From a virus (Duplodnaviria > Heunggongvirae > Uroviricota > Caudoviricetes): a stretch of 64,000 nucleotides of DNA. The notes beneath the pieces were generated by a model, which did not search any database, was not told where the DNA came from, and was given only the letters and a program-made list of their open reading frames with translations. Shown in pieces: positions 1,755 to 41,811 of the stretch (position 1 is its first letter; every line of letters starts with the position of its first letter). The DNA is taken from IMG/VR virus record IMGVR_UViG_3300029935_000001, positions 201,867-265,866 of that record. One strand, 5' to 3'. The position numbers were made by a program, and so were the translations under genes.

Positions 1755-1973
1755 GTGGTTTCTGGCAACACCGTTTATATTAACGATGGCAACGTCGAAA
1801 AAGCGTTGCGCAAATTTAAGAAAAAAGTAGCAGAAAGTAAAATTCTGCAAGAACTTCGCGAGCGCGAACATTATACCAAACCAACTACTGCGCGCAAAGT
1901 AAAAAAAACGCAAGCTCGCAGTCGCTGGCTCAAGCACGTTCGTTCACAACAACTACCTGACGCCAAATTTTAA
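1755..1973 (+). CDS. rpsU: ribosomal protein bS21 homolog
   Basis: GTG start 8 nt after AAGGAGG; basic 72-aa protein; VEKALRKFKKKV...REHYTKPTTARKVKK matches the bS21 signature. Confidence 0.8.
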   Translation: MVSGNTVYINDGNVEKALRKFKKKVAESKILQELREREHYTKPTTARKVKKTQARSRWLKHVRSQQLPDAKF

Positions 1974-5256: not shown

Positions 5257-5747
5257 GGATAGCTTGGATTGTAGGGCAAAGCGATCAGAATTACGATGTT
5301 GCTGCCCTCAAGGCAATCGGTCCTCTCTGGGGCACTTGGCAGTCGTGGCGGAAGTTTAAAACTGATAACGTAGTAGTAACAGACTTTAGCAAAGCAGTTG
5401 ACTTAACTGGCCGTGCCTTTCATAGTGTTTGTAACTTGTATCTCCCCGAAGACTTGTATCAAGCTGCTCAACGGCCAGCTGGCGTGCGCTTGTTTGCGCG
5501 TCCTGCAGGCGCTGGCGATTTAGCTGCATTAATGGGAGTAGTAGCAACTGTGGCCGACATTGTTCTTATTATTGGGTTGAGGCCGGGCTCACCTAACGAA
5601 GAACGTGAAGTGAAGTCAATTGTGCTAGCACACCCTAATATTCAATGGGTGAGCCTCGATGCCACTGAACCTTTTTTTGGTGGCAATGCTCCGCCAAACT
5701 GCCTAGTAGACACCACTGCTAATGTCTTGGCGATGCTTTCTGGTTGA
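5253..5747 (+). CDS. hypothetical protein
   Basis: The ATG overlaps the upstream stop (aaATGa); the gene's stop TGA lies inside the -35 TTGACT of the next promoter. Confidence 0.45.
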   Translation: MRIAWIVGQSDQNYDVAALKAIGPLWGTWQSWRKFKTDNVVVTDFSKAVDLTGRAFHSVCNLYLPEDLYQAAQRPAGVRLFARPAGAGDLAALMGVVATVADIVLIIGLRPGSPNEEREVKSIVLAHPNIQWVSLDATEPFFGGNAPPNCLVDTTANVLAMLSG

Positions 5748-5803
5748 CTAGCTGCTGCTACGGCGTTATAATAGCTACATACATTACTACTGCGGAGAAC
5801 ACA
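5744..5803 (+). promoter_or_regulatory. sigma70-type promoter (TTGACT-17-TATAAT) plus conserved leader variant
   Basis: -35 at 5744-5749, -10 at 5767-5772; leader agctacatacattactactgcggagaacacaATG. Confidence 0.6.
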
Positions 5804-6202
5804 ATGACTGCGCTCAACGAAACCGATCTTGTCACAGTTGTCGACCAAAGCTTGGGTTTCTTGCAGGCCCTTGCTGAGGTGTATGGCTCCGAGCGCGCAC
5901 AAGAAGCGTGGGCTAAGATAAGCGAGGCCCTCGGGCACGACGTTAGAGACGCAGTGTTCTTAGCTATGCTCGCCGGCGATAACGGTTCGGCTCGTGTGAC
6001 CTTCAAAATCACAAACCAAATCGTTAGCCATCGAGTGGCTGCTATTCGAGCGATTCGCGAGGCTGCATCGCTGGGCCTTAAAGAGGCCAAAGATCTTACG
6101 GATGCGGCAATGATGCGCGCCACTGTTGTGACGTGTAAAAATCGCCAATCAGCAAAAGGCCTGCGGCAAGCGTTGCGAGATCTTGGCATGGAGGCACAGT
6201 GA
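5804..6202 (+). CDS. protein with a ribosomal protein bL12 (L7/L12) C-terminal-domain-like region
   Basis: The C-terminal 70 aa read RVTFKITNQIVSHRVAAIRAIREAASLGLKEAKDL..., closely matching the bL12 CTD (EFDVIL...KIAVIKAVRxxTGLGLKEAKDL...); the N-terminal half is unrelated. Confidence 0.55.
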   Translation: MTALNETDLVTVVDQSLGFLQALAEVYGSERAQEAWAKISEALGHDVRDAVFLAMLAGDNGSARVTFKITNQIVSHRVAAIRAIREAASLGLKEAKDLTDAAMMRATVVTCKNRQSAKGLRQALRDLGMEAQ

Positions 6203-6590: not shown

Positions 6591-6705
6591 TTGTTTAAAA
6601 CGCTAAAAACTGCAAAGTGCGTGCTTACCAGCAAAGTGTCGAGACTTTTGCTGTAAATGTGCTCGATCAGAAATTACATAAACTGTGCTTAAAAAGGAAG
6701 CAATA

Positions 6706-7119
6706 ATGCCCTGGATCACTAATGTGCCGCTGCGCTGGATCGCCGAAGGTCACTACCCTAACCCGGGCTCAAACAGTATGCTGATCCAAATCGTGGACCC
6801 GGCGATGGAGTTTCCTGTACCAGCGACGCCGTTTCGGGAGATTCATCAGTTTGAGTTTCTCGACCTCGAGGACTCCGACGACTTTGCTGAAGAGTTCAAG
6901 ATCACAGACGAGCAGGCTGCCGAGCTGGTCGCGCTCCTGCAGCACGCGCTCAACCAAGGCATGAACGTTATTGTCCACTGTGTCGCTGGAGTGTGTCGCA
7001 GCGGGGCAGTATGCGAGGTTGGCGTGATGATGGGGTTTGATGATGCTGGCGCGTACCGGGCTCCTAACCTCATGGTCAAACGTCTCATGATGAGGTGTCT
7101 TGGCTGGACCTACGATTAG
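6706..7119 (+). CDS. Cys-based protein phosphatase (dual-specificity/tyrosine phosphatase fold)
   Basis: CX5R P-loop VHCVAGVCRSGAV; SD AAAAAGGAAG upstream. Confidence 0.65.
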   Translation: MPWITNVPLRWIAEGHYPNPGSNSMLIQIVDPAMEFPVPATPFREIHQFEFLDLEDSDDFAEEFKITDEQAAELVALLQHALNQGMNVIVHCVAGVCRSGAVCEVGVMMGFDDAGAYRAPNLMVKRLMMRCLGWTYD

Positions 7120-7120
7120 G

Positions 7121-7179
7121 TTGACAGCACCTGCTCAGATCCGTATAATACGAACATAGACAACGCGCCGGAGAGCAAA
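7121..7179 (+). promoter_or_regulatory. sigma70-type promoter TTGACA-17-TATAAT
   Basis: -35 at 7121-7126, -10 at 7144-7149; leader cgccggagagcaaaATG. Confidence 0.6.
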
Positions 7180-7362
7180 ATGGGTTATCGAGTGTTTGAA
7201 GCCAACGACGGGTTCGGCGCGCGCAAAGGCCTCGAAGGCCCGTTCCGTTACCCCAGCGGTCGCGTTGTATATTACGATCCCAAAGAGGGCAAGTATTATG
7301 ACCCCAAAACGGACTGGTACTTAAGCCATCAAGAGGCGTTAGAACTTTATGCATTAACCTGA
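7180..7362 (+). CDS. hypothetical small protein
   Basis: Promoter-driven 60-aa ORF. Confidence 0.45.
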
Positions 7363-7928
7363 GCACGTTGAGCTGCTCGATACGCGAGCATCTTCTCGCG
7401 TATCTTTTGCTTATGTTCTTCGGTTTGTTTGTGCCCTTTCTTTTTAGGCTTGCCAAGATGCGCTGCTGCTATCTTAGCTTTAGTCTCTTCAGAATGTTTA
7501 TCAGGAGAACCATCTAGACGAGCAGGTTTTTTGCGTCCTTTGAACTTTTCGCTCATCTTCTGTTTCCATTCGTCACTATGTTCAATTTTCTGTTTAGCTC
7601 GTGCAGCACGAATCTTTGCCTTAGCTTCTTCTGTATGGGTTCTACCAAACATATAGTTGAGCTCTCCAGGGAATGATCCCCCATCCCCGCCGTCGGTTTT
7701 GTTATAGAGAATACCTGTACCAATATCCTTTCTGCCATACCAACGGATATACCTGCGCTCAAGAGCCAATGCACCAACTTCGGTTAATCCTGTCTCAAGA
7801 AACACTATTCTCGAACGATCGCGAGGAACAGTAACATTGTGTCGGCCAAACACGCGGTTGCCTTGGCCTTTTCCGATATAGTACGGGGTTCCGTCTTTAC
7901 GGAGATAAGCATATGTATAGTAGTTCAT
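7347..7928 (-). CDS. GIY-YIG homing endonuclease with NUMOD3 DNA-binding repeats
   Basis: N-terminal [20 protein letters not shown]...R...E (GIY-YIG); three NUMOD3-like repeats ([15 protein letters not shown]; [15 protein letters not shown]; [15 protein letters not shown]); minus strand against the genome polarity. Confidence 0.8.
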
Positions 7929-9395: not shown

Positions 9396-10388
9396 GTGAT
9401 ACCAACAAGAGCGCAATACTTTTTTACTGAGCGTGGATTTTTTAGAAAAAACGTCCTCAAAGAAGAAAAGTTCAGTCAACGCTATCCAGCTGTTTATGCA
9501 GAAATTAACAAAATTACTTCAACCTCGTTGCCGTGGCGAGAACGAGTGTATCTATATATACATGATGCACAAGAACCCCCACTCTGCCACTGCGGATGCG
9601 GAGAGCGGTGTGCTTTTTCGAACTGCCAAGACTCGAGTCGATTTACATATTTAAAGTTTTATTCAACTAAGTGCAAAGCTCGTGCTTATGGCGGTGTTGG
9701 AAATCCGTTTTTTGGTAAAAATCACTCAGATGAGACAAAAGAAGCAATCAGAGTTAAAAAGCAGGGCAAAACATATTCGCCCGAAGTAAACGCTAAAAAA
9801 GTGCGTCGCGGTGCTCAAAACGGAATGTACCAGCGTTGTAACTATGACGTTTGGCTCGAAAAATACGGCCCAGAAATTGCTTTACAAAAGCAGTTAGCAG
9901 CAAACGCTAAAAAAGTGCGTCGCGGTGCTCAAAACGGAATGTATGGTAAGTCGCCATCAAAAAAAGCTGGCAATTCTGTTAAGTGTTGGTACAAAGGTTA
10001 CTTTTGCCGCAGTTTATCCGAGCTAAGTTTTATAATAAACTACTGCGAGCGATTTAGGTTATTGTTTGAAACTGCCGAAACTACAAAATACAAAGTTGTT
10101 ATAGGTCCTAATAAAACGTACAGACCGGATTTTTTAGTAAACAACAAATTTATTGTTGAGATCAAACCAAAAGGGCTACAGAAGGCCCATGCTGACAAGT
10201 TTAGCATAGCCAAAGCAGAGTTTCTAAAGCAAGGGCTAACGTTTAAAGTCATTGACCCTATTAAAAAACTAAGTTATAATGACATTTTTGCGCTAATGCA
10301 AACGGGTGCCGTAGAAATAATGGCTGCTACGCATAGCAAAACTTATAACAACTTTATGAAAAGGTATCAAAAATGGGCAAAGCGGTAA
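9396..10388 (+). CDS. free-standing homing endonuclease (Zn-finger + NUMOD3 repeats + C-terminal PD-(D/E)xK-like nuclease)
   Basis: GTG start after AGGAGAG; CHCGCG zinc motif; NUMOD3-like GKNHSDETKEAIRVKKQGK; duplicated AKKVRRGAQNGMY module; C-terminal RPDF...VEIKPK motif; inserted between the pnk remnant and the intact pnk. Confidence 0.7.
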   Translation: MIPTRAQYFFTERGFFRKNVLKEEKFSQRYPAVYAEINKITSTSLPWRERVYLYIHDAQEPPLCHCGCGERCAFSNCQDSSRFTYLKFYSTKCKARAYGGVGNPFFGKNHSDETKEAIRVKKQGKTYSPEVNAKKVRRGAQNGMYQRCNYDVWLEKYGPEIALQKQLAANAKKVRRGAQNGMYGKSPSKKAGNSVKCWYKGYFCRSLSELSFIINYCERFRLLFETAETTKYKVVIGPNKTYRPDFLVNNKFIVEIKPKGLQKAHADKFSIAKAEFLKQGLTFKVIDPIKKLSYNDIFALMQTGAVEIMAATHSKTYNNFMKRYQKWAKR

Positions 10389-11281
10389 TCTGTGTCGGCG
10401 TTTCGGCTTCTGGAAAAAGCACCTGGGCGCGCAATTTCATCCACGACCGTACTACGAATGCCGGCGAGCAGTGGGTTGACATCAATCGCGACTGGGAACG
10501 GCGCTGTATTTTGGTCGAAAAGTCGCAAGGTCAGATTGACCGGCTCGTTTGGCGCCACTGGAAGTGGAAGTGGGAGGACGAAGTCACCCAACGTTGTGAA
10601 GCTCGTCTTGCCGAAGCGGCTGCTGCCCAGAAAAGTGTTGTGATCTCGGATACCAACCTGAATCGAGACCGCCGGACGGCTTTGAAGCACAAGCTCGAAG
10701 CACTTGGGTACGATGTTGAATACAAGTTTTTCTCGGTTACGTTCGAGGAAGCGTGCCGGCGCGATGCTGAACGCGAAAACGGTGTTGGTTACTCGGTGAT
10801 CGCTAAGCAGTTTGAGCAGTGGAATGCCGAGTTTCATGCTAAGCACATCCTGCAAGCTGGTTTGCCTGAATGCGTGATCGTTGACATCGACGGCACCATG
10901 GCTCACATGAAGGGGCGCGGCCCGTTTGATTGGGCGCGAGTGGGCGAAGATACAGTCGACCCGGTTGTGGATCGAATGGTCCAAGCCCTTCAAGACCAAG
11001 GATTTAAGATCGTTTTCCTGTCGGGGCGCGATGGCTGCTGCGAAGCTGAAACTCGCGAATGGCTCCGCAACAAGACCAGCGTCGGCGAGTTCGAGCTGTT
11101 TATGCGCACGGCAGGCGATTCGCGACGCGACGACATTGTCAAGCAAGAATTGCTTGCTGAGCATGTCGAAGGGCGTTACAATGTTTTTTGCGTGTTCGAC
11201 GATCGCCCCCAAATGATTCGCAAGTGGCATGCTATGGGTCTCAAGGTAATGGCTGTTAGCAACCCGTACCTCGAGTTTTAA
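10373..11281 (+). CDS. pnk: polynucleotide 5'-kinase/3'-phosphatase (T4 Pnk-like)
   Basis: N-terminal P-loop GVSASGKST; C-terminal HAD phosphatase motif VIVDIDGTM (DxDGT) plus downstream Asp residues; same domain order as T4 PseT. Confidence 0.8.
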   Translation: MGKAVICVGVSASGKSTWARNFIHDRTTNAGEQWVDINRDWERRCILVEKSQGQIDRLVWRHWKWKWEDEVTQRCEARLAEAAAAQKSVVISDTNLNRDRRTALKHKLEALGYDVEYKFFSVTFEEACRRDAERENGVGYSVIAKQFEQWNAEFHAKHILQAGLPECVIVDIDGTMAHMKGRGPFDWARVGEDTVDPVVDRMVQALQDQGFKIVFLSGRDGCCEAETREWLRNKTSVGEFELFMRTAGDSRRDDIVKQELLAEHVEGRYNVFCVFDDRPQMIRKWHAMGLKVMAVSNPYLEF

Positions 11282-13984: not shown

Positions 13985-15082
13985 ATGCGTAAGCTTGCTA
14001 CCATTCGTAAGATCGCCGAGATCAAGCCCATCGAGGGCGCCGACGCCATTGAACATTACCGCGTACTTGGGTGGTGGGTCGTTGACAAAAAAGGTGCCCA
14101 TCAAGTCGGCGACCTTGTCATTTACCTCGAGATCGATTCCTGGGCGCCCAATGAGCTGGCTCCGTTCCTGAGCAAGGGCAAAGAGCCGCGCGAATACAAC
14201 GGCGTTAAGGGCGAGCGCCTCAAAACTGTTAAGCTTCGCGGCGCTATCTCGCAAGGGCTGCTGCTGCCCGTTAAAACCGGAATCGGCGGCTACCCGTTTG
14301 TTGAGGGCTCCGCCGGCGAGCACACTGTTGTTCACGAAGGCGACGATGTCTCCGAACTGCTCGGCATTCAAAAATACGAGCCGCCCGTTCCGGCTCAGCT
14401 GCGCGGCAAGATTGCCGGCACGTTCCCGAGCTGGCTGCGAAAAACTGACCAGGAACGGATCCAATCTTGTTTTGCGGAGATTGAGCCTCTGCTCAGCGGC
14501 CTTTGGGTGATTGAAGAAAAGCTCGATGGGTCGTCTATGACTGTTGGCTACCGCAAGGGTGATTTTATCCTCGACAAGGATGGCCAGCCCATCCCTGAAG
14601 AAACTGTGGTTTGCTCGCGTAATCTGTCGCTCAAGCTCGACGATGACGCTAACTCGTTTGTGCGTGTGGCCCGAGAAACTGGCGTGCTTGACGCGCTGAA
14701 GGCGTATGGCCGTAACCTGGGCATTTCAGGCGAGCTGTGCGGCGAGGGCATCCAGGGTAACAAGTATAACCTCAAGGGCCAGCGCTGGTTTGTTTTCGAC
14801 ATTCTCGACGTTGATCGGGCCGAGTACGTTAGTTACGAAGAGCGCCAGCTGATCATCAATGATCTCGTTGCGCTCGGCGCCCAACTTGATCAAACTCCAC
14901 TGATTGCTGAGGGCGTTACGCTTGAGGGCATGACCGTCGACGGCTTGCTCCGAGCTGCTGAAGCGAAGAGTGCGCTGAATATTCAAGCCGAGCGTGAAGG
15001 ACTGGTATATAAGAGTGTTGAGCGGCCTGATGTGTCGTTCAAGGCTATTAGCAATCGGTGGTTGCTTAAAACTGGGGAATAA
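13985..15082 (+). CDS. ATP-dependent RNA ligase with N-terminal OB/tRNA-binding-like domain (Rnl5/DraRnl-like)
   Basis: N-terminal Myf/EMAP-like OB segment (RKIAEIKPIEGADAIEHYRVLGWWVV); nucleotidyltransferase motif I KLDGSS, motif IV EGLVYK, motif V FKAIS. Confidence 0.75.
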   Translation: MRKLATIRKIAEIKPIEGADAIEHYRVLGWWVVDKKGAHQVGDLVIYLEIDSWAPNELAPFLSKGKEPREYNGVKGERLKTVKLRGAISQGLLLPVKTGIGGYPFVEGSAGEHTVVHEGDDVSELLGIQKYEPPVPAQLRGKIAGTFPSWLRKTDQERIQSCFAEIEPLLSGLWVIEEKLDGSSMTVGYRKGDFILDKDGQPIPEETVVCSRNLSLKLDDDANSFVRVARETGVLDALKAYGRNLGISGELCGEGIQGNKYNLKGQRWFVFDILDVDRAEYVSYEERQLIINDLVALGAQLDQTPLIAEGVTLEGMTVDGLLRAAEAKSALNIQAEREGLVYKSVERPDVSFKAISNRWLLKTGE

Positions 15083-25321: not shown

Positions 25322-25918
25322 ATGACCACCCTTATCCCCATCGTTGTTGAACAAACTGCCCGCGGCGAACGCTCCTACGACATCTTTAGTCGTATGCTCA
25401 AGGACCGTATTGTTTTCCTCAACGGCCCTGTTCGCACTGAGATGTCGCATTTGATTGTAGCGCAGCTTCTTCTACTTGAAGCCGAAGATCCTGAGCGAGA
25501 CATTGTTATGTACATTAACTCGCCAGGCGGCGAAGTCACTGCAGGCCTGGCAATCCTTGACACTATGCGTTTCATCAAGCCTGACGTAGTTACGGTAGTA
25601 ATGGGGCAGGCGGCGTCAATGGGCTCACTGCTTGCATCCTCGGGCACTAAAGGAAAGCGCTATCTGCTGCCCAATGCGCGGCACCTCATCCACCAGCCAC
25701 TCGGCGGCGCCTCGGGCCAAGCCTCGGACATCGAGATCCATGCCAAGGAGATTATCCGCCTCAAGCGCGAGCTCACTGAAATTTACGTAGGCAACACAGG
25801 CAAGACATTTGAAACACTCGAGCGCGACATGGATCGTGACAACATTATGACGGCTGCTGAATCCGTGGCATATGGCCTCGCTGACAAAATCATTACTAAC
25901 CGACTTGACGGGCTATGA
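25322..25918 (+). CDS. clpP: ATP-dependent Clp protease proteolytic subunit ClpP
   Basis: 198 aa; [14 protein letters not shown]; active-site Ser in QAASMGS; His in LIHQP; canonical Ser-His-Asp triad spacing. Confidence 0.9.
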
Positions 25919-28503: not shown

Positions 28504-28960
28504 CGCATCAACTCTGTATCGCAAAGAAGGTCGAAAGTATGTTCCAGTTCAGCTTGTAGAAGACGTGTATCACCGATTCCCGCACGGGGCGCATTTGGTA
28601 GTCGCCGATTTGCCCCATTGTACAATCTTCCGCTATAATGTAGAAAACTTGGATGTAGCTGTGCTAGCTGCCTTAGTTCGTTGCGAGAATCGGCTTGTTG
28701 AAGAGATTTGCGTCGAATCCGCATTGCGCCCTTCACGCCCTCCAATTACACCGGAGCAACACCGGGCTTGGAAAAACTTCATTGCTGTAATGGGCGACAG
28801 CGGGCGCACAGTAACCCACAATTCTGCCCAGCAAATAGCAGCTTCTGCGTTACAAAAGCTCAGCAAAGACATTGAGCAGACTTTGGCTGATCCACGCGTT
28901 CGGGAAGCATACGAAAAATTTAAACTTGTAGTAACAATGCTCGACAACGAGGAAAAATAA
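28490..28960 (+). CDS. hypothetical protein
   Basis: Internal ATG of track ORF 28436..28960 chosen to minimise overlap. Confidence 0.4.
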   Translation: MTSPNASTLYRKEGRKYVPVQLVEDVYHRFPHGAHLVVADLPHCTIFRYNVENLDVAVLAALVRCENRLVEEICVESALRPSRPPITPEQHRAWKNFIAVMGDSGRTVTHNSAQQIAASALQKLSKDIEQTLADPRVREAYEKFKLVVTMLDNEEK

Positions 28961-29601
28961 TGCTCTTTGATCTTGACGAACTTTCGTGGACTCGTCCGGT
29001 CCCAGTCAGGCCATCAATTAAAGTGATCCCAGGGCAATATCCGTTGGTGCCCGAAGCTGACCAAGGTGCAGTGACGCTAATTGGACCAAATCTCGAGCAC
29101 GGGCCTTGGATTGCCGGCGGAGCCCCCTTACATTGGTATCGCGGGGAGTCGATTGGTCTACATCACGACATTGACGTGTGGTTTAAAGACTTGGAACAGT
29201 TTTCGGCGGCAGTGTTACGCCTCCGCGATTATGGGGACGTGGTGTGTGAATCACCTAATGCACAGACTTTCCGATATTATCACCCTGACAGTGGCACCTG
29301 CACAATCCAGTTAATCAAGGTAAACTTTTTTGCTAGCGCACAAGAAGTTATTGATCACTTTGACTTCAGTGTGTGCCAGCTAGTTACCGATGGCAAAGTT
29401 ATGCTCTATGGCAAACACACGCGCGAGGACATCGAATCCAAGCGCCTTCGAGTAGTAAAGGTTCGAGCTGATTGCGCTAAACGCATTGTGAAATACCTGT
29501 CGTATGGTTACAAAATGGCGCTTACTGACATTAAAGAGCACTTTGCTCTAACTGAAAATTGGGAGTTCACCCACGAGGATTACGAGGCAACAAAGCTATG
29601 A
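28960..29601 (+). CDS. possible minimal nucleotidyltransferase-fold protein
   Basis: RGESIGLHHDIDVWF resembles a G[GS]...DxD pol-beta NTase motif, with a later DHFDFS acidic patch; weak. Confidence 0.3.
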   Translation: MLFDLDELSWTRPVPVRPSIKVIPGQYPLVPEADQGAVTLIGPNLEHGPWIAGGAPLHWYRGESIGLHHDIDVWFKDLEQFSAAVLRLRDYGDVVCESPNAQTFRYYHPDSGTCTIQLIKVNFFASAQEVIDHFDFSVCQLVTDGKVMLYGKHTREDIESKRLRVVKVRADCAKRIVKYLSYGYKMALTDIKEHFALTENWEFTHEDYEATKL

Positions 29602-38444: not shown

Positions 38445-38792
38445 AATTTGACTATGTCAGTTATTAACCCACACCAGCAGACTGCTGGCCACACAGTTGT
38501 AAACATAAGTTCCGCGGCAGCGATCCCGTGGTCAGATGCTAATTTGCCCCACAAAATTAGCAACACTATAAATACATCTTTGCGTATTGATTCAGATTCT
38601 ATTGTAATCGGCGACCAAACACTCAGTGTTATTTTGCAAAACTTGCAAGAGCAAATAGCTCTTTTGGTTCCAAGTCTTGAGCTGCACAAAGAGTATGCCG
38701 AGCTTCGAGAGCTCTACGATCAGTACCAAACTAAGCGCAACGAAATCAAGGAGAAGCGCCGAATGTGGGAAACACTAAAAAGCAATGGCTAA
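38439..38792 (+). CDS. hypothetical protein
   Basis: ORF; C-terminal helical region. Confidence 0.4.
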
Positions 38793-39003
38793 AGAAGAAG
38801 CAATCCGTTTAGACGGGGTAGTAACCGAAGTCCTGCCTAACGCAATGTTCAAGGTAGAAGTTGGTGACACAAAGCACCAAGCAGTAGCACATATTAGTGG
38901 ACGAATGCGCCAAAACTCGATCAAAGTGATTGCCGGGGATCGCGTAGAGATTGAGTTTTCGCCCTACGATTTGACCAAGGGCCGAGTAGTGCGTCGCCTG
39001 TAA
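38785..39003 (+). CDS. infA: translation initiation factor IF-1
   Basis: 72 aa; the S1-like OB signature [64 protein letters not shown] aligns along its full length to bacterial IF-1. Confidence 0.85.
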
Positions 39004-39036: not shown

Positions 39037-41811
39037 ATGACGCAAATACGCTGGATAACAAGTGCCGGGTCGTTAGGGACCATTCCGGAAGGACGATTTT
39101 ACCGACTACCACTCCAGGCGGTTGCTCCCGGTGAAGATGTGAAATTTAAACTGATCTCAGGCAGGCTTCCTGCAGGGATTCAAGTAAAAATAAACGGAAC
39201 ACTTGAGGGCATACCAGAAGCAGTGGCAATAACACAAGGTGTTCCACTTCCGGTTGACCGCAATGTAACTTCAAAATTCACTGTTCGAGCATACGTCACT
39301 GACGCCCATGGCACAGTGATTGGCATTGCTGACCGGACGTTCGAAGTTACCGTCACGGGTCAAGACGCGCCGCGGTTTGTTACCCCAAGCGGTAGTCTCG
39401 GCGGTTTTTTAGATGCCACCGAGGTCCGCATTCCTATTCAAGTAGCTGACGACGACAACGAAGAGTTAACAATCACTGTCGCGTCTGGCCAGCTCCCACC
39501 GGGCCTTACTGTTGTTGGTAATGTTATTCAAGGCATTATTGAGCCCGAACTTACTCTCGAAAACACTGCTATTCCTGGATTTGACAGATCATCATACGAC
39601 CAGTATCCGTTTGACTTTTCTGCTATCGCAGTGGACCGTAATTATCAATTTACCTTAGAAGTTACCGACGGAAAAGAAACCGATCGCCGCCAATACTCAA
39701 TATTTGTAATGGCGCGCAACAACATCCCACTGGATCCGAGCGAACGGTTTGCGTTATTATCAGGGTTGGTATCAAATTCCGACTCCGATTGGACAGTTGA
39801 GCGGCCTCCGTTTATTACAAACGCATTAAACGAGTTAACAGTTCGCCACGACAACTACTTTTTTTTAAAATTTAATACTGTCGATTTCGACGGCGATCAA
39901 GTGGGAGTTAGGGTCGTCGGCGGGGTGGTGCCGCCATTTCTTTATAATTTCAAAGACACAAACACAACGTTCGATAATGGGACTACTACATTTAAAGAGC
40001 GTTTAGAGGCGTATAAGACTGTTACCTTTGATAATAAGACTACAGTGTTTGATAGCGGCCGTACTCAAATGTTTGTTTCTGGGCATATAACTTTCGACAC
40101 AACCACTCCGAATTTAACATCTAACGCAACAACATTTGATTGCAGGTTGAGCAGCGGCGAAACCTCCGCTACGAGGTTTTATAGTTATTTGCCAGTTAAT
40201 GTTGCTACTTCTTTTGTTAACAATTCGTTGTTCGGCCAACTACCAGACCAGGGTGCCACTGAAGAAGAGTATGTGTTTGTAGTCGAAGCCTACAAACTCA
40301 ACAACCCCGCAATTCGAAGCCGCCCATACCAGTTTAAAATAACCGTAGTCGGCGACATCGAAAAAGAGGTTACCTGGTTAACTGCTACAGTAGACTCAGT
40401 TTGGACTGGCCAGCCATCAACGTCGTTTGTTCAAGCAGCCAGTAAGCTGGGTTATCCGCTACAGTATCGGTTAGCGAAGAACACAGCTAGCAAGTTGCCG
40501 CAAGGCTTACAACTGTTGCCAACAGGTGAAATTGCCGGCCGCCCAAGTATTAACCAGCTAATGTTCGACGGTGAAAAAACCACATTTGATTCGGAACTGG
40601 CCACCCGTCGCGAAGTTAAACCAACTACGTTTGACCGAACTTTTGAATTTGTTGTTGAAGCTTTTTACGTCGATCCTGCCGACGCAACTAACACAATTGT
40701 TTCGACATTTAAGCAATTTACCATCCAGGTGCGTGATTCCGCTAAGCGGCCGTGGGAAGGGTTGTATATTCAAGCAATGCCTCCACTGGACGACCGCGCA
40801 ATAGTGCGGGAGTTTTTATCTAGTACCATTTTTGATCCTGAGATGTTGTTTCGGCCAAATGACCCAAACTTTGGCTTAGCTCGAAACATAGTTTATCATC
40901 ACGCGTTTGGTGTCACTGCTGCTGATTTAGAACAATATGTAGATGCCGTGCAACAATCGCATTATTCCAAAGAAGTCACAATCGGTGAACTGAAGAGCGC
41001 ACAAGCCCTGGACGACAACGGTCAAGTTGAATATGAAGTAATTTATGCGTCTATTGTCGACGATTTAGTCACCGCTAGCGGAGAGTCAATTTCTACTCGT
41101 GTTCAGTTACCGCCATTAAAAAATCGTCCGGTTGATGCTAGCGGAGTTCCAGTCTCTGGTGTTTATCCAAACAGTTTGCAAAATATGCAGAAGCGTATAT
41201 TTACTGAAGTTGGGAGAGTAATACCGTCACTCCCAGCTTGGATGCGTTCTAAACAACCCGACGGCCGGGTGTTAGGCTTTACACCTGCGTGGGTTATAGC
41301 TTACACCAAACCCGGAAAATCACGCGAACTGCTGTATCGAATACAAGAAAATTTTATAAATGTTTTTAATAAAATTGACTTTTCGGTTGATCGATTTATT
41401 GTTGACAAAGAACTAACGTATATCTGGGGTGCAACGCGAACCCCTTCGTATGCAGCTTCGCTTGCGGGTGCAGGAGTTACTGTGTTGCCTGGCGCGTGGG
41501 ATACTCCAACATACACTACGTTTGACATTGATGTCAATCGCACATTTGATCCAGTTAACACATACGACCGTGGCACGGTCACAACAGAAACGCTCGCAGA
41601 CCCGCCGTTTTGGATCAGCGGCGCTGTGTCAACTATTATTTCAAATTCGTGTGGCCAGTGGGACTGCGGCGAAGTGTTGGGTCTAAGCGGCGGAACTGGC
41701 ACTACTTTTGATCGAGCCCGGTTGCGGTTTGTTGCTCCTGTGATTTCCTACGGGCAAGGCGACATTCATAATAAATATGTTATGTTCACAAAACGAGGTA
41801 TTTTTAAATGA
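39037..41811 (+). CDS. large structural protein (924 aa) with N-terminal Ig-like (He_PIG-type) repeats and multiple T-T-F-D motifs
   Basis: Repeats ISGRLPAGIQVKINGTLEGIP / ASGQLPPGLTVVGNVIQGIIEP / ASKLPQGLQLLPTGEIAGRP; at least 8 copies of (T)TFD; likely tail-fibre, baseplate or decoration protein. Confidence 0.55.
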   Translation: MTQIRWITSAGSLGTIPEGRFYRLPLQAVAPGEDVKFKLISGRLPAGIQVKINGTLEGIPEAVAITQGVPLPVDRNVTSKFTVRAYVTDAHGTVIGIADRTFEVTVTGQDAPRFVTPSGSLGGFLDATEVRIPIQVADDDNEELTITVASGQLPPGLTVVGNVIQGIIEPELTLENTAIPGFDRSSYDQYPFDFSAIAVDRNYQFTLEVTDGKETDRRQYSIFVMARNNIPLDPSERFALLSGLVSNSDSDWTVERPPFITNALNELTVRHDNYFFLKFNTVDFDGDQVGVRVVGGVVPPFLYNFKDTNTTFDNGTTTFKERLEAYKTVTFDNKTTVFDSGRTQMFVSGHITFDTTTPNLTSNATTFDCRLSSGETSATRFYSYLPVNVATSFVNNSLFGQLPDQGATEEEYVFVVEAYKLNNPAIRSRPYQFKITVVGDIEKEVTWLTATVDSVWTGQPSTSFVQAASKLGYPLQYRLAKNTASKLPQGLQLLPTGEIAGRPSINQLMFDGEKTTFDSELATRREVKPTTFDRTFEFVVEAFYVDPADATNTIVSTFKQFTIQVRDSAKRPWEGLYIQAMPPLDDRAIVREFLSSTIFDPEMLFRPNDPNFGLARNIVYHHAFGVTAADLEQYVDAVQQSHYSKEVTIGELKSAQALDDNGQVEYEVIYASIVDDLVTASGESISTRVQLPPLKNRPVDASGVPVSGVYPNSLQNMQKRIFTEVGRVIPSLPAWMRSKQPDGRVLGFTPAWVIAYTKPGKSRELLYRIQENFINVFNKIDFSVDRFIVDKELTYIWGATRTPSYAASLAGAGVTVLPGAWDTPTYTTFDIDVNRTFDPVNTYDRGTVTTETLADPPFWISGAVSTIISNSCGQWDCGEVLGLSGGTGTTFDRARLRFVAPVISYGQGDIHNKYVMFTKRGIFK

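Follow-up and report, generated by a model that had tools for sequence, protein, structure and literature searches.

A phage protein family that joins a bL12-type C-terminal domain to a conserved three-helix N-domain, and its possible link to translational GTPases

What does a tailed phage do with the C-terminal domain of the ribosomal protein bL12, and where does the sequence in front of that domain come from? The question is raised by a gene on a 64,000-nucleotide stretch of DNA from a member of the Caudoviricetes (IMG/VR record IMGVR_UViG_3300029935_000001, positions 201,867 to 265,866), which is called the window below. The viral origin of the window is supported by its dense same-strand small ORFs, homing endonucleases, a polynucleotide kinase-phosphatase with an RNA ligase, and ClpXP. 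The gene lies on the + strand at 5804..6202, stop codon included, and encodes a two-domain protein of 132 amino acids. Its reading frame runs intact through 132 codons, from an ATG at 5804 to a TGA at 6200–6202; homologues share the start methionine, and a Shine-Dalgarno-like GGAG, read from the sequence, stands 6 nt 5′ of the ATG (5794..5797, + strand). A preliminary description of the locus had proposed that residues ~62–133 reproduce the bL12 C-terminal domain (CTD), and that this domain is fused to an unrelated N-terminus lacking the bL12 N-terminal domain (NTD).

We find that the C-terminal half of the protein is a bL12 CTD by all tests run, with bounds at residues 64–132 (5993..6199, + strand). 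The peptide cited in the preliminary description covers these same residues, and the last residue of the protein is 132, not 133. Pfam Ribosomal_L12 (PF00542) matches residues 74–129 with 33.4 bits against a gathering cut-off of 25.9 (E 5.5e-8). Since this and the other profile matches are significant, the identification withstands the profile search whose failure, according to the preliminary description, would have refuted it. A phmmer search against all PDB chains gives the E. coli L7/L12 CTD (1ctf) as the top match (E 3.7e-6), with bL12 chains as the only matches below E 0.1, and a profile of the family CTDs aligns with 78 genuine bL12 sequences in hhalign at a probability of 99.1% (E 1.5e-18). 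The predicted structure, also suggested earlier as a check, agrees with this assignment. Specifically, an AF2 model (pLDDT 80) made from an alignment of seven homologues gives residues 64–131 as beta-alpha-alpha-beta-alpha-beta, and bL12 structures rank first when the model is compared with the PDB in Foldseek, with T. maritima L12 (1dd3_A) at E 3.7e-4 and 1ctf at a TM of 0.67 (35% identity over 69 columns).

The helix 4/5 face of this domain (residues 77–100, RVAAIRAIREAASLGLKEAKDLTD; 6032..6103, + strand) corresponds to E. coli bL12 K65–E88, the GTPase-binding site in that protein. Here V78, I81, R82, and R85 take the places of V66, I69, K70, and R73 of E. coli bL12, while L92, K93, E94, and K96 take those of L80, K81, E82, and K84. 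In bL12, contacts with the G′ domain of EF-G are made by V66–V68, K70, L80, and E82 (PMC5887453), and K81 and K84 belong to the helix to which IF2, EF-Tu, EF-G, and RF3 bind (PMC9239087). According to a passage of the latter paper that cites Ge et al. 2018, K81 and K84 are also required for IF2-driven subunit association (PMC9239087).

Conservation of this face was assessed in 130 full-length family representatives that had been retrieved via the N-domain alone—i.e. in a set that avoids ascertainment bias on the CTD. The CTD positions of lowest entropy in these representatives are the bL12 helix 4/5 residues, namely K/R82 (100% of the family; K70 in bL12), R85 (99% R; R73), L92 (98%; L80), V/I78 (94%; V66), E/D94 (94%; E82), I81 (92%; I69), K96 (92%; K84), A95 (85%; A83), and K93 (84%; K81). 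Variable positions are found in strand 2, in helix 6, and in the loop that reads "AP" in all bL12. Of 150 representatives, 79 have the exact motif LKEAK[DEKN] and the remainder are mostly conservative variants, while a few strongly degenerate versions of LKEAKD (e.g. LADSKQ and LQDSIF) are seen in the N-domain-retrieved set. In the IMG/VR set LKEAKD is invariant, but the motif had served as the search pattern there, and its invariance was not counted as evidence. G79, L80, and A83, which are among the conserved residues of helix 4/5, have structural roles too.

The retention of these residues agrees with the earlier view that this is the factor-recruiting domain of bL12. It also provides the main argument on function: charged, exposed residues of helix 4/5 are kept in a protein that is not ribosomal, and from this we infer that its ligands belong to the same class as those of bL12, the translational GTPases. 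The interpretation in terms of translational GTPases is plausible, while the two modes of action put forward in the preliminary description, sequestration of these GTPases or delivery to ribosomes via a new N-terminal anchor, are hypothetical. In the fuller reading that we favor, tentatively and with somewhat less than even confidence, the phage would make the protein early, and it would bind translational GTPases of the host, probably at a place other than the ribosomal stalk.

The gene is real and is under purifying selection. Comparisons with relatives of 75–76% identity give a dN/dS of 0.16–0.17 at a dS of ~0.8, with constraint in both domains. Upstream of the gene lies a near-consensus sigma-70-type promoter, TTGACT-17 nt-TATAAT (5744..5772, + strand), which agrees with the consensus at 11 of 12 positions and ends 32 nt upstream of the ATG. 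When scored against the sigma-70 consensus at a threshold of at least 11 of 12 positions, the 64-kb window has 28 such sites, whereas shuffles lead one to expect 0.56 per strand. All 28 lie on the + strand, and the − strand has none. These near-consensus promoters have the form TTGAC[ACT]-16/17-TATAAT, with examples at 7121, 27205, 33846, and 58538 (+). Given these 28 same-strand sites, the window has the appearance of a single, very long early region that would be transcribed by the host RNA polymerase.

The protein belongs to a large family. A word-indexed search returns seven relatives, each of 131–132 amino acids and with both domains present, and a scan of IMG/VR finds ~63 viral contigs with proteins that match residues 12–132 at 27–42% identity. 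Many of the IMG/VR contigs with two-domain relatives are 100–200 kb long; homologues in other large phages, which the preliminary description had advised looking for, are thus present. An exhaustive HMMER search with the N-domain profile against 1.84 billion representatives retrieves 291 clusters, defined at 50% identity, at E ≤ 0.001, and all of these come from viral or metagenomic contigs. Nearly all are 125–140 amino acids long with the N-domain at the N-terminus, the exceptions being fragments or apparent assembly chimeras. This uniform layout indicates that the two domains travel together, and that the N-domain essentially never occurs with another partner domain. One protein, P0011, has the family N-domain followed by a GAPDH-like C-terminus and is probably a metagenomic assembly chimera, not a real fusion.

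Metagenomes are so far the only source of both the phage and the family. Among 50,697 records of cultured phages, neither DNA nor tblastn searches return a match, be it with the protein itself or with a consensus-like family member as the query. A scan of one genome each for 185,579 species gives, among the matches listed, only true rplL genes, with similarity restricted to the CTD, and neither a prophage copy nor a pointer to the host. Similarly, PHROGs contains matches to the CTD core only (phrog_26927, to which no function is assigned there) and no two-domain family. The only link to cultured phages that was found is a 924-amino acid ORF of the window (39037–41811, +) that has no Pfam match; over residues 412–796 it shows 26% identity to S8 peptidases from the jumbo phages Atu_ph07 and Phosso.

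The N-domain (residues 1–60; 5804..5983, + strand) is predicted to form a three-helix bundle, with helices at residues 6–27, 29–43, and 45–56, and the same three helices are predicted in the full model and with the N-domain folded alone. Residues conserved in the family are F19, Y27, G28, E30, W36, K/R48, F52, and G58. The linker between the domains is short, at ~6 residues, as the helices extend to residue 56–57 and CTD strand 1 begins at residue 64 in the AF2 model. The flexible Ala/Gly/Pro-rich hinge, ~20 residues long in bL12, is absent from the sequence, and in an alignment with 78 bL12 sequences helices 2 and 3 occupy the hinge columns. The hinge gives bL12 its reach, and bL12 needs it to work on the ribosome.

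We wondered whether this N-domain is foreign to bL12 or is a bL12 NTD that has changed. Neither Ribosomal_L12_N (PF16320) nor any other Pfam family matches it at E ≤ 10, for the protein itself or for 34 N-domains of the family, and a comparison with the PDB finds designed helical repeats and no natural sequence. These Pfam searches agree with the preliminary description, in which the NTD was said to be lacking. The word "unrelated" is less settled, as profile comparisons reveal a borderline, colinear likeness. A 34-sequence N-domain profile aligned in hhalign with the NTD of 78 bL12 gives P 0.04, and a 131-sequence profile gives a score of 16.0 (P 0.008), which is borderline and just above the maximum of 15.9 reached by 60 column-shuffled controls. 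In this pairing, family residues 9–35 are colinear with bL12 helix 1/2 and the FGV motif, and the family pattern FxxxxxxxYG faces LxxxLEEKFGV of bL12. Moreover, when the whole model is compared in Foldseek, the top match is T. maritima L12 in its full length (1dd3_A), aligned across 138 columns. Taken together, the borderline match and the full-length L12 at the top of the Foldseek list suggest that the protein may be a remodeled full-length bL12 instead of a fusion.

If that were so, the protein could replace host bL12 in the stalk: its N-domain would still dimerize and dock on uL10 of the host at helix 8, and would exchange with host bL12. The consequence would be stalks with hingeless heads and an altered recruitment of factors on phage-modified ribosomes, alongside the phage-encoded bS21. 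Beyond the likeness of the N-domain and the Foldseek match, this explanation draws on a similar length (132 vs. ~125 amino acids in bL12), on a full-length profile alignment that is colinear, and on the bS21 gene located 4 kb upstream. Several observations disagree with it, however: the hhalign probability for the N-domain against the bL12 NTD is 1–5% only, Ribosomal_L12_N remains unmatched, the predicted N-terminal fold is a three-helix bundle vs. a two-helix hairpin, the hinge is missing, and the score against the NCBIfam bL12 equivalog TIGR00855 (25.1 bits) is far below its cut-off of 84.4. Work on other phages bears on both sides. Mizuno et al. argue that exchangeable ribosomal proteins are favored by viruses, and a different phage bL12-domain protein, that of Salmonella phage FSL SP-076, was seen in 70S by mass spectrometry; yet this is the only phage protein of the type for which 70S association is reported, it was seen through one peptide, and the tagged version did not co-purify with ribosomes (Mizuno et al. 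2019, Nat Commun 10:752; PMC6375957). On balance, we consider stalk replacement rather unlikely, but it is the main rival to the reading we prefer.

Action of the protein on host translational GTPases away from the stalk, the reading we prefer, would proceed as follows. The protein would be made early from a strong host-type promoter and, through its helix 4/5 face, would bind IF2, EF-G, EF-Tu, and RF3 of the host as bL12 does. This binding would most likely take place off the stalk, given that the protein has neither a recognizable uL10-binding domain nor the ~20-residue hinge, and the protein would thereby act as a soluble competitor or adaptor, drawing the factors away or altering their availability. 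The N-domain could contribute stability, oligomerization, or a second partner. Its position relative to the CTD is uncertain in the AF2 model (pTM 0.51), so that it could partly cover the helix 4/5 face.

The step most likely to be affected would be translation initiation during host take-over, because genes for bS21 and IF1 are present in the phage as well, and because K81 and K84 of bL12 have a role in IF2-dependent subunit joining. The bS21 gene (1755..1973, + strand; 72 amino acids) matches PF01165 at 63.3 bits and lies directly downstream of the ClpX gene, while the IF1 homologue (38785..39003, + strand; also 72 amino acids) matches PF01176 at E 1.3e-21 and IF-1 chains in the PDB at E 1e-21. 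With the bL12-like protein, they form the three translation-related genes of the 64-kb window. In 5 other viral loci, the distance between an IF1 gene and the family gene is less than 10 kb, and in locus L007 the two are neighbors. The association with bS21 and IF1 may, for its part, reflect shared descent within one large-phage lineage only. The outcome would be either that host translation is inhibited or that phage translation is favored. A more daring version of the same idea, which we hold to be quite improbable, sees the family as a "portable stalk head"—i.e. a bL12 whose hinge has turned into helices, which is no longer able to occupy uL10, and which would instead trap IF2 or EF-G in solution or be a GAP-like partner of either—with bS21, IF1, and this protein acting as an early three-part kit that reprograms initiation.

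The protein may also have kept the fold of bL12 for another use. Under this explanation, the bL12/ClpS-like domain is a generic binding module for a partner that is not a translational GTPase; this could be another protein of the phage, its ClpXP/ClpS proteolysis system, or a defense factor of the host. The bL12 CTD and ClpS have a common fold, and ClpS chains do appear in the Foldseek list; the phage also encodes Clp components near the gene. Specifically, the window has a full proteostasis set on the + strand with ClpX (533–1741), Hsp20 (2024–2521), ClpS (2580–2882), and ClpP (25322–25918). The ClpS of this set is a true PF02617-type adaptor, encoded 3 kb upstream of the bL12-domain gene and separate from it. 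The similarity of our protein is, by contrast, specific to bL12: the Pfam match to Ribosomal_L12 is above cut-off, ClpS has zero Pfam matches in the protein at E ≤ 10, and the ClpS chains found by Foldseek are weaker than those of bL12, with E > 0.2 and 9–17% identity. A ClpS-like function was rejected for these reasons.

The genes around the family members also speak to this alternative. Across 63 viral loci the neighborhoods are variable accessory regions, with phosphatases, RNA ligase, kinases, and small ORFs, and this counts in its favor, as does the degenerate LKEAKD motif in part of the family. No fixed partner gene is found near the family gene in any consistent way across these 63 loci, however, and PADLOC defense families have no match at E ≤ 0.01. 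Selection, moreover, keeps the very residues of bL12 that are charged, surface-exposed, and in contact with factors. Re-use of the fold for a partner other than a GTPase is, in our view, unlikely. As for a decaying, functionless remnant of a captured rplL, for which it can be said that no donor is identifiable, it is extremely improbable and was excluded given the dN/dS of 0.16–0.17 in both domains and the same architecture in 291 clusters, to which the gene's own strong promoter and ribosome-binding site and the conserved synteny in relatives can be added.

The accessory genes that recur most often near the family gene, with the window counted in, are a metallophosphoesterase (16 loci), an RNA ligase (10 loci), and a dual-specificity phosphatase (7 loci). 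In the window, 480 nt separate the bL12-domain gene from the dual-specificity phosphatase downstream of it (6685–7119, +), which has an HCxxGxxRS motif, and the order ClpX-bS21-Hsp20-ClpS-…-bL12-domain gene-…-phosphatase is kept in relatives. Five other viral loci (L018, L032, L034, L042, and L043) have a homologue of this phosphatase less than 1 kb downstream of the family gene, and in L025 one is located ~2.9 kb upstream of it. A polynucleotide kinase-phosphatase (10373–11281, +) and an RNA ligase (13985–15082, +) follow, and resemble the tRNA-repair pair of T4.

Other genes of the window differ even among close relatives. For example, a putative homing endonuclease with NUMOD3 motifs (7347–7928, − strand) is absent from the gene table of L001, a Logan contig that is 99% identical to the window, and is present in L003. 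An ORF with NUMOD3 and a TnsA-like domain (9396–10388, +) is likewise absent from the L001 gene table, and both look like insertion polymorphisms between near-identical phages. The window also has an ORF assigned to PF26128 (Gad2; 28960–29601, +) by precomputed Pfam annotation on an identical contig, for which PADLOC gives no match, and single ORFs that match Hc1 (chlamydial histone H1-like, E 3e-12), MazG (E 6e-9), and YAcAr SLOG (E 2e-9).

What is new here is a coherent, large, and phage-only subfamily with its own N-domain, in which the factor-binding face is the part of the protein under strongest constraint, and a gene, probably early, that stands near bS21 in a genome also encoding IF1. 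We know of no demonstrated function for any phage bL12-domain protein. As a large and compact family that keeps the EF-G and IF2 contact residues, the present one offers a practical test case for phage interference with translational GTPases, and three outcomes are at stake, in which the protein would be a decoy for the factors, would modify the stalk, or would use the fold for something unrelated. If it were a decoy or GAP-like partner, viruses would have an inhibitor of translation of a new kind, which would also be useful as a reagent.

It remains to place the family among known systems. Bacterial bL12 (L7/L12, rplL; TIGR00855; 1ctf, 1dd3, and 1rqu) has the CTD fold and sequence and the helix 4/5 residues in common with our protein, as well as a similar total length and a weak, colinear resemblance at the N-terminus. 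It differs in its Ribosomal_L12_N match and its Ala/Pro-rich hinge, where our protein has a three-helix bundle at the N-terminus. The A90–P91 loop, K95–E96, and the C-terminal K120, all invariant in bL12, are missing here, and bacterial rplL lies next to rplJ whereas this gene lies in what appears to be a phage early region. The protein is thus set apart from true bL12 by equivalog score, hinge, and context. Full-length bL12 is also encoded by huge phages, on contigs of 363 and 529 kb (L075:9764-10177 and L078:9788-10174, respectively). These proteins share phage origin and an identical GLGLKEAKDL core with ours but, unlike it, keep the canonical NTD (…LTKKLETAWGVSA…) as well as an Ala/Pro-rich hinge, and they have the look of true stalk proteins, which ours does not. 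ClpS (PF02617), lastly, is of the same alpha/beta fold class as the CTD but has no sequence match to the protein, whose conserved residues are those of bL12.

Within the same two-domain family, UniProt/BFVD contains A0A6J7WGF4, a 132-amino acid protein of an uncultured Caudovirales phage that matches ours in Foldseek at E 3.5e-10 (127 columns, 31% identity). Its annotation, "Ribosomal protein L7/L12, C-terminal", is automatic only, and we found neither a published study of this protein nor, in the literature searched, a paper on the two-domain subfamily.

The closest described relatives are the virus-encoded bL12-domain proteins of Mizuno et al. (PMC6375957), and the preliminary description overstated the novelty of the locus in this respect, as bL12 domains in phages were already reported there. 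Their examples include proteins of Ralstonia phage RSB3 (BAN92321), Dinoroseobacter phage DFL12phi1 (AHX01035), and Salmonella phage FSL SP-076 (AGF88397), in which the bL12 domain is stand-alone or embedded in unrelated polypeptides, is under purifying selection, and keeps the residues that contact uL11, EF-G, and EF-Tu; the authors suggested that such domains might offer interfaces for translation factors (PMC6375957). Our protein shares every testable feature of this type: it is phage-encoded, has a PF00542 CTD with ~30–40% identity to cellular bL12, keeps the factor-contact residues, lacks a recognizable canonical NTD, carries attached nonribosomal sequence, and is under purifying selection. 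By contrast, the examples of Mizuno et al. come from cultured podoviruses with genomes below 80 kb and are either CTD-only proteins of 92–107 amino acids or large ones of 418–724 amino acids with variable flanks, whereas the family described here has so far been found in uncultivated phages only, many of them on contigs above 100 kb, and has a fixed length of ~130 amino acids and a conserved three-helix N-domain of its own.
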